DNA of 60,867 nt from an uncultured Clostridia bacterium. GTDB taxonomy: Bacteria > Bacillota > Clostridia > TANB77 > CAG-508. A program made the translations under genes and the position numbers. Position 1 is the first letter of the stretch; the number at the start of each line of letters is the position of its first letter. The notes under the pieces were generated by a model. It was not told where the DNA came from. It worked only from the letters and a program-made list of their open reading frames with translations, and ran no database searches. Location: contig CALXBZ010000001.1 in assembly GCA_944386665.1 (NCBI GenBank), positions 1 to 60,867 on the forward strand, in the 5' to 3' direction. Shown piece by piece: positions 14,053 to 26,065 of this stretch.

Positions 14053-15795
14053 TTAATACCCAAAATATCCATTTGTTACGTATAGATTATATCTGGACCT
14101 TGCTAAAGCTGTTAAATATAGTTGTCGTAAGTTTGTTCCTCCAAGATTAGTTACTTGCACTTTATTTCCATTTTCATCTATTACGTTATCTGCTATTATA
14201 TTATCTGTGCTATAAGTTTTCGAGGCAGTTACTATGCAATCATAACAAGGAGTATATGCTTCTGGATAATAATAAGCATATTTTCCTGAATCTGCTCCCA
14301 ATATTTGACTATGAGCATTTGAATCTTCTCCTGTAATTGAAACAGTTTTTCTTTCAAATTCACTAGATGGATATGCTCCTTCTATATTCACAGAGTTGCT
14401 TTTTAAATTTTCTATTAATTTTAAACACCCCGGTTTATGATATTCACCATTACTGTCAACTATGAAAATAGAATCATTTCCTACTGTTTCTTGGTTTGTA
14501 TTATTTGAAACAATACAATAGTTATTATAAACCTTTGCTCCGATAGGAACACCTTCAAAGAAGGTTAGCATACATACATTATTTTGTATTTTATCCCATT
14601 CTTCTTCTCCTAATTGTGGCATTGAAAATTCATATCCTATAACAGTATGTGATGTAAATGTTGCTATCGCTGATAATAAATTAGTCTCTATTGATTTTCT
14701 TATTACATTCATTCTATGTTCATTAAATACAGAATCGGTTTTTATAGGATTGTTTTCATCACTAATATCAAATATTTTTTCGTTTCCTATATTTGTTGCA
14801 AAATCTGTAATTGCATTTCCATCCACATCAACTGCATCATTTGGTGTAATATTTCCTAAATATTTATCTACCCAATTTGTAAAGCTAATTGGATCACCAT
14901 TAAAATCTGTAGTTAGCGGATCTAATGATTCAGAATAGTATTTTGTTGCACTGTCACTGCATAAGTATAATTGTCCATTAATATTTCTCAAATGATTATT
15001 TAGATATTCTATATCTGAAATAGTTGTTACATAATTCTTTTTATATTCACTGCTATAGTAAAAATATCTCTTTTTTCCTTTTTCTCCAGTATCGTTTATA
15101 TCCCCCGAAAAAGCATCTGGATTGTTGTCTTTATATATTTTTTGGCTATTGTATACAATATATTGAAAATTTTCTGTAGTTGGCTCTACATTTACATCAT
15201 CACTTAATATTATTAAATTTTCTCTTAATATTTCATCTGCAATAACACTTCTATCTGAATCTGCAATCAAATGTCCCGTCTTTATTACATAATGCCCCTT
15301 TACTGTTCCTATTATGGTTATTGTGTTATCTAATGTATAATTTACTACAAAATCCGTATTGTTACCTGTTTTGTATCTACAAGAATAATAATTAAAAGGT
15401 TTTAGCCCATATCTATATTCACCATATTCAGTATCATAAAAATTAGAATATATATAATATCCATCATATAAAGTAAATAATATTGCTGGTACATATGGTT
15501 GCAAATCTTCTTTACTATATCCCGAAACTCCCATGTTTGTACCAAGTGAATTAAAGAAAACATTTATGGATGCTTCTATATCCCTTATTTTCGAATTTGA
15601 AATTGTTGAATACATATTATTTGCAGTATTTAGTTGAAATGCTTTAATTCCATCATAAGTAGCATTTATTAATATATTGTTATATTTAGTCTGATTTTCT
15701 ATCGTCTTAATATGCATATTTATATATACCGACAATACCAATGATATTGGAACTATTATTATAACAAAAATTATAATTATATGTTGTAGTTTCAT
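14053..15795 (-). CDS. Large secreted or anchored protein (580 aa), last gene of the Tad-like locus
   Basis: A single N-terminal hydrophobic helix (IIIIFVIIIVPISLVLSVYI), then a long Asn/Tyr-rich ectodomain. Co-directional with the locus. Confidence 0.55.
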   Translation of the reverse strand: MKLQHIIIIFVIIIVPISLVLSVYINMHIKTIENQTKYNNILINATYDGIKAFQLNTANNMYSTISNSKIRDIEASINVFFNSLGTNMGVSGYSKEDLQPYVPAILFTLYDGYYIYSNFYDTEYGEYRYGLKPFNYYSCRYKTGNNTDFVVNYTLDNTITIIGTVKGHYVIKTGHLIADSDRSVIADEILRENLIILSDDVNVEPTTENFQYIVYNSQKIYKDNNPDAFSGDINDTGEKGKKRYFYYSSEYKKNYVTTISDIEYLNNHLRNINGQLYLCSDSATKYYSESLDPLTTDFNGDPISFTNWVDKYLGNITPNDAVDVDGNAITDFATNIGNEKIFDISDENNPIKTDSVFNEHRMNVIRKSIETNLLSAIATFTSHTVIGYEFSMPQLGEEEWDKIQNNVCMLTFFEGVPIGAKVYNNYCIVSNNTNQETVGNDSIFIVDSNGEYHKPGCLKLIENLKSNSVNIEGAYPSSEFERKTVSITGEDSNAHSQILGADSGKYAYYYPEAYTPCYDCIVTASKTYSTDNIIADNVIDENGNKVQVTNLGGTNLRQLYLTALARSRYNLYVTNGYFGY

Positions 15796-15814
15796 TAATC
15801 GCTTTACCTTTCTA

Positions 15815-15862
15815 TTATAAAAGGCAGCTCAGAACTAGCTTTTAATAGTTCATAGAGCTGCC
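15815..15862 (-). terminator. Intra-operon hairpin (attenuator-like) between the 177-aa and 580-aa genes
   Basis: GGCAGCTC (15823-15830) / GAGCTGCC (15855-15862) with an inner GAACTA/TAGTTC extension. Followed on the minus strand by TTTTAT. Confidence 0.45.
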
Positions 15863-15875
15863 AAATTTATAAAAT

Positions 15876-16409
15876 CTATTTTGTACCATTTACAGTAACT
15901 ATTCCTGCATGTTGTGCAGCAATTTGATATGTATCATTTCCTGCAATTCTGTACAAGAAATTCCTTAATATTTGAGCTATTGTAGTATTTGTATTTTTTA
16001 CAACGACGGAGATTCTATCTCCTTCTTTTAATGTTAGTCTGTTATTAGTAGAGTCATTAGTTAAGATATCTTCTAATTGGCTTGTGTATAAATTATAATA
16101 TACATTTTCTCCAATCTTGGTTGTCTCTGCTTGCGTGGTTTTCACTCCTGGATTTTCATCTAAAATTTGAGCCTGCATTTCAACATCAAAAGAGTTCCCT
16201 GTTGCAGTTATCGTTTGTACAAATTTATCATAATCATCCAATGTTAATTTGCCTGTAGTTCTAACCTTATCCACAAAATCGGTAGTAGCTGTCTGTACTG
16301 ATAATTGAGATATATCGTCAGTTCTTTCTGAAATTGACATCAAAGGAAAAATGAACATTAATATAGCTGCTAAAAATATTGCAATAATTGTAATAAAACT
16401 ATCTCCCAT
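15876..16409 (-). CDS. Minor-pilin-like protein (177 aa)
   Basis: N-terminus MGDSFITIIAIFLAAILMFIFPLMSI is a single hydrophobic helix, followed by a Thr-rich globular part. Position matches that of TadE/F-like genes. Confidence 0.5.
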   Translation of the reverse strand: MGDSFITIIAIFLAAILMFIFPLMSISERTDDISQLSVQTATTDFVDKVRTTGKLTLDDYDKFVQTITATGNSFDVEMQAQILDENPGVKTTQAETTKIGENVYYNLYTSQLEDILTNDSTNNRLTLKEGDRISVVVKNTNTTIAQILRNFLYRIAGNDTYQIAAQHAGIVTVNGTK

Positions 16410-24267: not shown

Positions 24268-24268
24268 A

Positions 24269-24964
24269 TTACTCTCCTTTTTCGATTTGCTTATATGCTT
24301 TTTTTACTCCATTTTGGTCATTGCTAATTTCTTGTGCTAAATATATAAGTGCATCTTTATATTCTGAACTTATTCCTCTAAATTTTATTCTTGATAATCT
24401 TTGGTTTTCCATTATTATGTCTTGGTCTTGGCTTTGCATAGGAAAATATATTTTATCATCCTGCCATTGAATTCTGTATCCTAAAGATAAGAAATTTAGG
24501 TAATCATCTTCTGCTTTAGACATTTGATTTGAAAAATATATTTTTGTAATTTTAAGTGGCATTTCAATTTTTCTCAAAGTCTCAAGACCTTTTTTTAATG
24601 AATACAAGTCTGCTGATGTTACAAAATAGTTTTCTCTTGCATCATATATTTCAAAACTATTTACTAAATTAGGATTATTTATATCTATAAGAATATAATC
24701 ATAAGTAAATACCGCTGACTCTGGCATTCCTAAGAATTGCTTAATTTCATTATAGTTTGAAAATCCTACAGCAATATCAATATCTAGATAATTAGTTACA
24801 TATGATATTAAGTTATTGTCTATTGCTGGTATAACATATCTTGCTTTTTGTTCTACTGTTGCATCAACTATTAGTACTTTTTTGCCCATTTCTACCAATA
24901 TTTTAGCAACATACATTATAAGATCTGTTTTATCAAATGCTCCTATAAAATTTATTTTCTCCAT
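24269..24964 (-). CDS. Degenerate ParA/MinD/TadZ-like protein (231 aa)
   Basis: INFIGAFDKTDLIMYVAKILVEMGKKVLIVDAT, YDYILIDIN and YFVTSADLYSLKKGLETL. P-loop-like but deviant. Confidence 0.5.
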   Translation of the reverse strand: MEKINFIGAFDKTDLIMYVAKILVEMGKKVLIVDATVEQKARYVIPAIDNNLISYVTNYLDIDIAVGFSNYNEIKQFLGMPESAVFTYDYILIDINNPNLVNSFEIYDARENYFVTSADLYSLKKGLETLRKIEMPLKITKIYFSNQMSKAEDDYLNFLSLGYRIQWQDDKIYFPMQSQDQDIIMENQRLSRIKFRGISSEYKDALIYLAQEISNDQNGVKKAYKQIEKGE

Positions 24965-24991
24965 TGTTTCCTCCTGAGCTATTAGTACTTA

Positions 24992-26065
24992 TTAATTTCC
25001 TGCTAAAGCGTCTAAATAAGTTTGTCTTTGTTCTTGAGTTGTTAATATTTCTTTCTTTACTCCATTGCTTACATTTGTTTGAGCGTCATCAGGATCTACT
25101 GAATTTTTCGAATTATTAATTTCATCTCTTACGCTTGTATTTGCATTATATCTCGTTAGCAGTTCTCTCTTAGCTGTATCTAAAATATTAGGATCATTAT
25201 CTCTCATTAAAGTTTGTACTTCTGCACTTGGTACATATGTTGGTATTGATTTTTCTTGAGTTCCTGGTTCAACATATTTTGTTGTGTAAAGAACTGAACC
25301 TTCAACTATATAGTTTTCAACTATCGCATTACTCATTGCTAAAATTTCATCTTCTGTTAATTTTAACCATATTGTGTTTACTGAATCTATTCCATCTATT
25401 TGTGGCACTTCAACTTTTTTCTTAGAAACTACTATATAGTCTTGTCCAGATGGTAGTCTAAATCTTATATCAATATAATCATCCACTGCTATTTGACTTG
25501 CTAATTGTAACATATTGTATTCTTGAATTCTTAAATCATTTGTTGTTTTTTCATCTGATTTAATTAACATTGTATTAGTTAATACTGTATTAGCTTTCAT
25601 ATCAATTTTTGCTAATAATGGTGGTGTAGCAAGTTCAACGTATTTTTTTTCTTTATTAACTTCTATATAATAATATCCAGTAGCCTCTTCTGATTTTAAT
25701 TCATAAGCCATTCCATCTATTTGTAAATAAGTTTTTCCCTCACTTGTTACCACAGAGTTTCCACTCTTATCTTCTAGAAAGTAGCTTTCTAAATTAGTTA
25801 TACTTGATGTAGCATTGGCTGGTACAGTAGCTTTGTCAACCTCTATAGTAGTTATCATATCACTAGTTATGATTTGACCTGATGTAACATCTTTTTTTAG
25901 AACGCAAACTTTAACTGTACTTGCAATTCTTGCATTTTCTTTTTCTTTCATATTTTTTACTTGTACCAATAATAGTGCAACTATCATTGCCATAATTACA
26001 AATGTTATTAATACTCCTAGAATAAATGAACTTCTTGCTTTCTTTTGCATTGGATTTGTAGCCAT
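24992..26065 (-). CDS. CpaB/RcpC-like pilus assembly protein
   Basis: N-terminal TM helix, then a SAF-like segment VKVCVLKKDVTSGQIITSDMI and a later DDYIDIRFRLPSGQDYIVVSKKKV beta-clip-like segment. First gene of the locus. Confidence 0.65.
   Translation of the reverse strand: MATNPMQKKARSSFILGVLITFVIMAMIVALLLVQVKNMKEKENARIASTVKVCVLKKDVTSGQIITSDMITTIEVDKATVPANATSSITNLESYFLEDKSGNSVVTSEGKTYLQIDGMAYELKSEEATGYYYIEVNKEKKYVELATPPLLAKIDMKANTVLTNTMLIKSDEKTTNDLRIQEYNMLQLASQIAVDDYIDIRFRLPSGQDYIVVSKKKVEVPQIDGIDSVNTIWLKLTEDEILAMSNAIVENYIVEGSVLYTTKYVEPGTQEKSIPTYVPSAEVQTLMRDNDPNILDTAKRELLTRYNANTSVRDEINNSKNSVDPDDAQTNVSNGVKKEILTTQEQRQTYLDALAGN

Follow-up and report, generated by a model that had tools for sequence, protein, structure and literature searches.

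A 12-gene 'pilus gene cluster' has been described in 122 of 129 species of the order TANB77 (Kim et al., Nat Commun 2024;15:10726, PMC11680825). Its reference copy comprises genes 927 to 938 of HRGM_Genome_2725, CAG-245 sp000435175 (PMC11680825). Based on AlphaFold2 (AF2) models and Foldseek, the first five products were given the roles of CpaB, TadZ, CpaE, TadA/CpaF and a platform with halves like TadC and TadB; six single-transmembrane (TM) 'pilin-like' proteins could not be assigned, and one large protein had a TadE/PilV-like N terminus (PMC11680825). The abundance of the cluster tracks the response to checkpoint immunotherapy, and recombinant 938 activates dendritic cells via TLR4 and improves the anti-PD-1 response in mice (PMC11680825). 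A pilus was not observed, and a leader, a prepilin peptidase and TadV were not mentioned (PMC11680825). The subject of the present analysis is a locus of 12 co-directional genes, here g01 to g12, at positions 14053 to 26065 (minus strand) of a 60,867-nucleotide (nt) stretch of contig CALXBZ010000001.1 (assembly GCA_944386665.1) from an uncultured Clostridia bacterium of TANB77 CAG-508. The whole stretch is referred to below as the window.

Two better-known families were used for comparison. Canonical Tad/Flp systems (Caulobacter Cpa, Aggregatibacter Tad and pRUMAL01 of Ruminococcus albus 7) share with the window a CpaF/TadA ATPase, TadB- and TadC-type T2SSF domains, a CpaB/RcpC SAF protein, a TadZ/CpaE ParA-like protein and a downstream run of small single-pass subunits. 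In contrast to these systems, the window has a fused platform, a pair of ParA-like genes and an ATPase that exceeds its canonical counterparts by ∼200 amino acids (aa) and carries an N-terminal TM helix. The window locus also has no Flp, no Pfam TadE and no in-operon A24 peptidase, and all of its components fall below Pfam/NCBIfam thresholds; a secretin is missing too, as expected for a monoderm. With archaeal type IV pili and the archaellum (FlaI/FlaJ, Epd-type) the locus shares a single platform polypeptide with two T2SSF-like halves, an ATPase for which FlaI is the second-best solved relative, and subunits without Glu5, some with a junction of the form K-A/hydrophobic. It differs in that the ATPase is nearer to CpaF (104 versus 60 bits), the platform halves match the bacterial TadB and TadC, the CpaB- and TadZ-type proteins are bacterial, and no FlaK-, PibD- or EppA-type peptidase lies nearby.

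The locus is the already known Tad-like pilus cluster of TANB77. Its products probably make up a divergent filament assembly machine of the Tad type (type IVc-like), in a gut Clostridium that forms spores and has a monoderm envelope. The machinery is homologous to that of Tad systems, and from the sequences we infer filament formation, the roles of the subunits and an adhesive function. The present work adds to the published description (PMC11680825) apparently leaderless pilins, the lack of an A24 peptidase gene nearby, homologues on plasmids and frame disruptions in this strain.

Comparison with the published cluster and its relatives

Gene order, roles and host clade were the same in the window as in the published cluster, and the sizes were nearly identical gene for gene. 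The published products are of 358/231/280/640/693/165/170/143/146/237/178/621 aa (PMC11680825), and those of the window are of 357/231/280/639/667 (with 24 residues lost)/163/170/142/141/235/177/580 aa, where the fourth is 645 aa if not read from its second Met and the eighth 145 aa rather than 142 as called. The number of genes, given as thirteen in an earlier reading of the same DNA made from the letters alone (the original prediction), was corrected to 12 by the listing of open reading frames (ORFs) and by gene calls on 100%-identical metagenome contigs; that reading's own list also sums to 12. The window derives from another species or strain and carries frame disruptions in g05 and g06. 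Two further differences concern interpretation: the paper assigns the platform halves to TadC and then TadB, whereas the profiles used here give TadB and then TadC, and it calls the cluster exclusive to TANB77, which is contradicted by the plasmid homologues described below.

Relatives were collected as 80 loci from species-representative genomes with ATPase identities of 77 to 93% (close relatives only; the search alignment held 18 sequences), four distant metagenome loci (33 to 38% identity) and five plasmid loci. Canonical Tad loci for comparison came from plasmids of Rhizobium, Ruminococcus, Streptomyces, Alicyclobacillus, Paraclostridium and Clostridium botulinum. All 80 of the closest genome loci belonged to uncultured gut Clostridia, including Ca. 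Scatovivens and Ca. Merdicola (79% ATPase identity), which are genera of the TANB77 family CAG-508. The 12-gene synteny extended across these loci, with the complete order being the commonest arrangement; most of the others reflect truncation at a contig end or duplication of one gene, and the genes were in no case rearranged. Identity across the related loci was 77 to 93% for the ATPase, 58 to 89% for the platform and 25 to 45% for the small subunits, and the combination of fast-diverging small subunits with invariant N termini is the classic pilin pattern. The ATPase family comprised 377 clusters at 50% identity (E ≤ 1e−30). The ATPase of the window, identical over its 639 called residues, was present on ten contigs, and the three that were read, from three samples, carry the same locus.

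Assembly machinery

Curated Pfam and NCBIfam scans of the 12 proteins returned sub-threshold matches only, and across the operon the precomputed Pfam annotation held a weak T2SSE match alone. Assignments were therefore made from single-sequence and family-profile comparisons. The ATPase gene, g04 (21481 to 23418, on the minus strand like all genes of the locus), encodes 645 aa, or 639 if counted from the second Met; the protein has a TM helix near its N terminus (residues 5 to 32), a family-specific N-domain of ∼230 aa and the motifs GEQGCGKTT, RITETAFEL, IIGEV and FTHHAKT. As a single sequence it matched CpaF in the PDB (E value, 8.5e−10) and the TadA family TIGR03819 (7e−9, below cutoff), and in Pfam it scored 24.6 bits for T2SSE against a gathering cutoff (GA) of 24.9. 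The family profile retrieved CpaF at 6.8e−29 (104 bits), far ahead of FlaI at 1.3e−15 (60 bits), VirB11/HP0525 at 2.4e−10 (42 bits) and PilT at 3e−10. Judged by these scores, g04 is a member of the TadA/CpaF clade and not of VirB11.

The first gene, g01 (24992 to 26065), encodes a CpaB/RcpC-like protein of 357 aa with an N-terminal TM helix (residues 9 to 40) and a SAF-like domain. It matched TIGR03177 pilus_cpaB at an E value of 2.8e−8, below cutoff, and SAF at 0.002. Its family profile aligned with monoderm CpaB/SAF proteins of canonical Tad loci (hhalign, 95.4%; E value, 1.8e−8) and, in the PDB, with the SAF domain of FlgA (E value, 5e−4). The product of g03 (23425 to 24267; 280 aa) is TadZ/CpaE-like, with a degenerate Walker A motif (GxxxxxxGQT, no Lys); it aligned with TadZ/CpaE of canonical loci over 229 columns (hhalign, 94.1%; E value, 1.3e−7) and with the ParA-family ATPase 3ea0 (E value, 0.003). 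Weak similarity marks g02 (24269 to 24964; 231 aa) as a degenerate ParA/MinD-like protein: AAA_31 was matched at 0.013 in Pfam, and in the PDB the family profile found MinD at 0.003 over ∼30 residues and ParA/Soj at 0.03 to 0.2, in the N-terminal P-loop region only. Its comparison with TadZ was not significant (hhalign), and that with g03 gave 30%. For its orthologue 928, a structural match to TadZ has been reported (PMC11680825).

These results bear out most of the original prediction, which had named a CpaB-like protein with a TM helix and a SAF-like segment, two tandem ParA/MinD/TadZ-like proteins and a CpaF/TadA-like ATPase. The first and last of these are upheld by the profiles, as is the TadZ-like nature of g03, and the MinD match lends g02 weaker backing. 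The general view, a filament locus of Tad/Flp-like type whose set of parts departs from the canonical one, was supported by all tests that were run, and the ATPase did not fall into a non-pilus family such as VirB11.

The platform gene

The platform is encoded by g05 (19370 to 21446), in which the ORF as it now stands spans 19370 to 21373 (667 aa, with a GTG start and no ribosome-binding site [RBS]). Its N-terminal half aligned with TadB (hhalign, 96.3%; E value, 2e−9) and its C-terminal half with TadC (91.7 to 93.7%; E values, 8e−7 to 2e−7), matches as strong as that of the positive control, TadB versus TadC (93.8%). When compared with the TadB and TadC profiles, g05 reads most simply as a tadB-tadC fusion in the canonical order; the likeness to archaeal FlaJ/PilC-like proteins drawn in the original prediction gained no support from these comparisons, which covered TadB and TadC. 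Sequence and profile searches of g05 against Pfam and the PDB were negative; in Pfam, T2SSF was also absent from 12 diverse platform homologues. An internal repeat could not be identified either, the N-terminal versus C-terminal half being not significant by hhalign with two alignments.

Orthologues of g05 are 690 to 701 aa long. In the window, a 1-nt insertion separates the ORF from its ancestral start, the RBS-linked ATG at 21446 that follows AAAGGAGG. The insertion lies 39 nt past this ATG, as an extra base in ...GCTGGAGTA-C-GGAAT... (stretch 21363 to 21446, minus strand). The original start now yields a peptide of 27 codons, and the long ORF resumes at the GTG at 21373 with loss of the first TM helix. 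The same insertion was found in three independent metagenome assemblies; the related loci L005, L006 and L009 are intact at this place. The single 667-aa platform that had been proposed to replace TadB and TadC is right as a fusion, and its length is the 5′-truncated reading of a gene of ∼691 aa.

An intermediate ATPase family was seen on pCLJ of C. botulinum Ba4 (L094, NC_012654, 7941 to 11560), where the ATPase, with 25% identity over 66% of the query (E value, 6e−21), lies with two separate downstream proteins of ∼300 to 360 aa and a 57-aa protein carrying a classical ...KRGG/L leader. This locus may link the fused-platform family to canonical Tad systems.

Single-pass subunits

Downstream of the platform, each of seven ORFs encodes one hydrophobic helix, as had been predicted, and in all of them it is N-terminal; one N-terminal hydrophobic helix is also found in g01 and g04. 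Four of the seven are pilin-like proteins whose sequences open with MENA. In g06 (18687 to 19347), the ORF at 18856 to 19347 encodes 163 aa starting with MENATKAL after an RBS. A further ∼58 codons in another frame, ending at 18687, correspond to the C terminus of full-length orthologues (200 to 280 aa), and the 187-nt 'gap' 3′ of g06 (18687 to 18860) gave blastx matches to the g06 C termini of L006, L008 and L009 (E values, 8e−18 to 2e−6). L006, from another species, has the split too, and its shifted part is 55% identical at the protein level; the split could be a tolerated truncation or could involve independent translation or frameshifting. The second, g07 (18156 to 18668; 170 aa), uses a GTG start in the arrangement taggaggaaaaaata-GTG-GAAAAT, translated as MENASKAL. 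The fourth is g10 (16449 to 17156; 235 aa), with the N terminus MENA[AV][ED]AL.

The third, g09 (17184 to 17609; 141 aa), is the best candidate for the major subunit. Across its family M1, E2, N3, A4, K6, L8, A11 and G24 are invariant at an overall identity of ∼36%, and at least 11 related loci carry the gene in duplicate. An AF2 model built from 121 sequences (mean predicted local distance difference test [pLDDT], 79) has a helix from residue 2 to 53 (52 residues) followed by a small alpha/beta domain, and the topology, as modelled, is pilin-like. A Foldseek search of the model against the PDB returned no match below an E value of 0.15, and spurious NTF2-like ones only.

The other three subunits lack the MENA motif. 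The product of g08 (17664 to 18101; 145 aa, 142 as called) was kept in 74 related loci, has a counterpart of 118 to 138 aa in plasmid operons and is likely a minor subunit or accessory protein. The best-conserved small subunit is g11 (15876 to 16409; 177 aa), with a median identity of 58% across 70 loci and retention in the plasmid operons. It is distantly DUF4320-like: 5 of 16 aligned sequences, a count that includes an Alicyclobacillus DUF4320 reference, match this Pfam family (best E value, 5e−5). The last gene, g12 (14053 to 15795; 580 aa), is the orthologue of 'pilin 938', of which the N-terminal 25% is TadE/PilV-like (PMC11680825), and is a candidate tip or minor subunit. Its plasmid counterparts are of 321 to 366 aa and have in common with it the N-terminal ∼100 residues and a C-terminal F..QG.P.G motif. 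Comparisons of the pilin family, g11 and g12 with Flp and TadE were not significant by hhalign, and Pfam TadE was not found.

Leaderless N termini and the search for a prepilin peptidase

All four MENA families (g06, g07, g09 and g10) start with M-E-N-A-[STAV]-[KED]-A-L at Met1, with a strong RBS (AGGAGG) 7 to 9 nt ahead of this Met. In 68 of 71, 78 of 81 (g07), 82 of 87 and 60 of 70 orthologues (∼86 to 96%), no possible start codon lies between the preceding in-frame stop and this Met, which leaves no room for a leader. The plasmid homologues examined start likewise (MSTNASKAL, MDSVTKAI, MESPVVKAI and MDSPVVKKI), with a few exceptions among later non-pilin genes. In agreement with the original prediction, no Flp-type G/xxxxEY site was present in the seven subunits or their orthologues. 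There is no space for a hidden small Flp gene either, since both large 'gaps' of the locus are coding remnants.

No Peptidase_A24 gene (TadV/CpaA) was found in the 60.9-kb window, as had also been predicted; the search combined precomputed Pfam annotation for the region from ∼11.5 to 45 kb with Pfam scans of all remaining ORFs from 120 aa upwards, apart from three of 743 to 871 aa. The GxGDxK motif was absent from ORFs with at least three TM helices in 1.73 Mb from 89 sources (the window and 88 loci, with up to 10 to 12 kb on each side), and Pfam scans of 45 polytopic ORFs from the flanks of related loci were negative for A24. In the gene tables of six plasmid operons, no A24 gene was listed within 9 to 12 kb of the match. 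By contrast, on pRUMAL01 of R. albus the T2SSF genes are separate, the Flp has the site G/AEFLEY, and the operon includes a gene for an A24 peptidase. Two canonical Tad loci fetched later as contrasts sit outside the 89-source motif screen, and one of them has an A24 gene in its operon. One outcome that had been named as counting against the prediction, a canonical Flp pilin and TadV in characterised orthologous loci, was not found: the orthologous loci carry neither gene.

From these sequences, use of the subunits in unprocessed or minimally trimmed form is favoured, because the wider family shows no conserved residue at the junction and none of the operons screened contained a peptidase gene. 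A broader claim can be put forward only tentatively, and on balance we doubt it more than we believe it: that the TANB77 chromosomes and at least 35 Firmicutes plasmids carry a lineage of type IV filaments with true leaderless pilins, bearing an M-[DE]-x-x-x-K tail and assembled without processing by a prepilin peptidase.

Homologues on plasmids of cultivable Firmicutes

Using tblastn, the ATPase was found at full length with 41 to 58% identity on large plasmids of cultivable Firmicutes, and the fused platform with 24 to 41% identity over 93% of its length on 35 plasmids. Hosts were Thermobacillus, Paenibacillus, Cohnella, Alkalihalophilus, Sporosarcina, Cytobacillus, Lysinibacillus, Clostridium argentinense, C. 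botulinum, C. beijerinckii and Butyrivibrio. The plasmids included pTHECO01 of Thermobacillus composti, pBsph of Lysinibacillus sphaericus, pBpOF4-01 of Alkalihalophilus pseudofirmus, a plasmid of Paenibacillus polymyxa M1, pRSJ17_1 of C. argentinense, and pCY186 and pCY360 of Butyrivibrio proteoclasticus. Five plasmid loci were fetched (L089, NC_019898; L090, NC_010381; L091, NC_013792; L092, NC_014390; and L093, NZ_CP014175). Judged from these matches, the operon is not exclusive to TANB77.

The plasmid operons share the order of the window, with a SAF protein, two ParA-like proteins, the long TadA-like ATPase and the fused platform, then a leaderless pilin and g08-like, g11-like and g12-like genes. 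They differ in being plasmid-borne and in having one MENA-type pilin paralogue versus four in TANB77. Genes for an SLH/cell-wall-binding protein and a giant protein (∼960 to 1200 aa; annotated DUF5704 in three) follow four of the five operons, the exception being L092/pCY186. The operon genes are annotated 'hypothetical', and no paper on the plasmid versions was found in literature on DUF5704, Paenibacillus/Lysinibacillus Tad or pXO16/tip-type conjugation. A GGDEF gene lies downstream of three plasmid operons and an HD gene downstream of two, which suggests that these operons encode surface structures controlled by cyclic di-GMP (c-di-GMP).

In the three plasmid versions, the GGDEF gene sits a few genes downstream, past the cell-wall-binding and giant-protein genes. 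The window also has a gene for a GGDEF-domain protein (2059 to 3156, minus strand), ∼11 kb downstream of the locus.

Proposed function and alternative explanations

In the mechanism that we propose, a hexameric TadA/CpaF-clade ATPase, anchored in the membrane through an N-terminal helix of its own, would drive the fused TadB-like/TadC-like platform, and the CpaB/SAF protein, the TadZ-like protein and the second, weakly ParA-like protein would scaffold and position the machine. The machine would pull single-pass subunits from the membrane and polymerise them via their long N-terminal helices. The MENA-type proteins g06, g07, g09 and g10 would be the filament subunits, with g09 the likeliest major one, and g08, the DUF4320-like g11 and the large g12 would be minor or tip subunits. 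The role of such a filament may be adhesion or aggregation in the gut. Signs of a monoderm host were the genes for a sortase, DivIVA and SepF in the window and for SpoIIIAC and SpoVAC in the flanks of related loci.

Several observations weigh against this reading. No filament has ever been observed and the organisms are uncultured (no microscopy was found in the literature). In Pfam/NCBIfam, hhalign and Foldseek comparisons, the small subunits could not be linked to Flp, TadE or solved pilins by either sequence or fold. The AF2 model of g05, built on a shallow alignment, had a pLDDT of 51, too poor to test the fold. With g05 deprived of its RBS-linked start and first TM helix and g06 frame-disrupted, the locus may be non-functional in this strain. 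Where processing is concerned, the K-A/L junction of the MENA tail has a loose likeness to the class III sites of archaea, and the peptidase search covered the window and the related loci. Separately, the Foldseek result for the g05 model was discarded as meaningless at this pLDDT.

The alternative that survives best keeps the same machine and treats the subunits as prepilins with a very short leader (MENA or MENASKA), cut after a conserved Ala by an A24 peptidase encoded elsewhere, such as a ComC/PilD homologue. In some bacteria, among them Bifidobacterium breve, tadV is encoded away from the tad locus, and the archaeal class III site has the form [KR][GA]/hydrophobic. Each of the four MENA families keeps Ala4 and Ala7, and a K-A/L or K-A/I junction recurs in plasmid pilins of Thermobacillus, Alkalihalophilus and Lysinibacillus. 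However, no small residue is conserved at the junction in the wider family (KK/I in C. argentinense, TK/I and VK/I in L086 and KDN/I in L085), g10 has E or D at −2 instead of K, and the tail has no net positive charge. Furthermore, no A24 gene was found in the 88 loci or near the six plasmid operons, whereas a canonical Firmicutes Tad operon has one. We regard cleavage of a short leader as rather unlikely, if far from negligible.

It is also possible that the locus is decaying or switched off in this strain, with a platform that lacks its first TM helix and RBS, a truncated first pilin and no filament. The 1-nt insertion in g05, shared by the window and three independent assemblies, and the disruption of g06 relative to orthologues of 200 to 280 aa fit this explanation. 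On the other hand, the rest of g05 (667 codons) is undamaged, as is every other gene, and the identical ATPase occurs on ten contigs, including those from three samples that have the same locus. The split of g06 in L006 as well, with the shifted tail 55% identical, suggests that it is tolerated or that the tail is still translated. The short form of g06, of ∼165 aa, is moreover the published representative (PMC11680825). Decay is an unlikely account of the locus in this strain.

A third explanation draws on the plasmid relatives, from which the locus would have inherited a short pseudopilus or conduit for DNA transfer or protein export; in those relatives it might serve mating-pair formation or the export and display of the giant cell-wall-bound proteins encoded nearby. 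The closest homologues outside TANB77 are on 35 large plasmids; the Thermobacillus operon lies ∼10 kb from genes for a type IV secretion system (T4SS) coupling protein and a relaxase-like protein; Butyrivibrio pCY186, L086 and L087 have NlpC/P60 hydrolase genes upstream and an SSB gene nearby; and genes for SLH/cell-wall-binding and giant proteins (DUF5704 in three) follow four plasmid operons. Yet the ATPase is of the CpaF clade and not VirB11, the window is without VirB4, VirD4, relaxase, SLH and DUF5704 genes, and all 35 plasmids were typed as non-mobilizable. The TANB77 locus is chromosomal, has native G+C content and is found in ∼95% of species, and the GGDEF/HD genes by the plasmid operons of Thermobacillus, Alkalihalophilus and C. 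argentinense fit adhesion controlled by c-di-GMP. A role in DNA transfer or export is the less likely one for the chromosomal locus of TANB77, and we think it improbable. A VirB11-type conjugative system was rejected on the scores of 42 bits for VirB11 and 104 bits for CpaF; T4SS, VirB4, VirD4, coupling-protein and relaxase domains were not found in the window by Pfam annotation and scans.

Locus boundaries and neighbouring genes

The preferred reading, a Tad-type assembly machine, concerns a compact operon. Intergenic gaps were 1 to 107 nt except for the one of 187 nt, and good Shine-Dalgarno sequences precede most genes, so the tight packing on the minus strand that had been predicted agrees with the gene calls. 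Both predicted flanking hairpins were also present when the sequence was read directly. The upstream one (26198 to 26236, minus strand) is the terminator-like hairpin of the DUF2651 gene, with CACGGC...GCCGTG followed by a run of eight T, and marks the 5′ boundary of the operon; a scan with consensus terminators overlooked it because of its 14-nt loop. The downstream one (13991 to 14018) is a perfect 11-bp hairpin with a weak T-run between the convergent g12 and a gene for a PBP5-type carboxypeptidase. A promoter scan was uninformative in this AT-rich DNA (91 sites versus 91.5 expected).

Housekeeping genes flank the locus, with a DUF2651 membrane protein, TruA and CdaA on one side and the PBP5-type carboxypeptidase, VanW and L31 on the other. 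The suggestion that the locus is an accessory module fits poorly with its G+C content of 27 to 30% (about 28%), the same as in the flanks, and with its presence in 122 of 129 TANB77 species (PMC11680825).

The DUF2651 membrane protein (26245 to 26760, minus strand) has an Asn/Cys-rich low-complexity C-terminal tail (...NNCNNNCNICRNRNNNCNNGRSG...) and lies beside the locus in 6 of the 80 related loci. A Zeta-toxin-domain protein (46399 to 47355) and a sortase (48853 to 49536), both on the minus strand, are encoded upstream of the locus at a distance of ∼20 to 23 kb. The sortase is in favour of a monoderm cell wall; no LPXTG substrate was seen in the pilus locus, without a systematic search. The alanyl-tRNA synthetase ORF (50016 to 51770, minus strand) is of 584 aa and ends after the tRNA_SAD domain, with a HIT-domain gene directly next to it. 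Typical bacterial alanyl-tRNA synthetases are of ∼870 aa, and the 584-aa form may be a reduced-genome variant without the C-terminal domain.

Implications

With the cluster itself already described, the remaining interest lies in a possible peptidase-independent class of pilins and in the plasmid homologues of cultivable hosts. Correcting the supposed exclusivity to TANB77 matters if proteins of the cluster are to serve as taxon-specific biomarkers. The plasmid operons occur in easily grown, genetically tractable Firmicutes and could make the pilus of an uncultured clade experimentally accessible. If the lack of leaders and of an A24 peptidase holds genome-wide, it would break a supposedly universal rule of type IV filaments, and if the leaderless reading is true, the type IV filament superfamily would gain its first peptidase-independent member.

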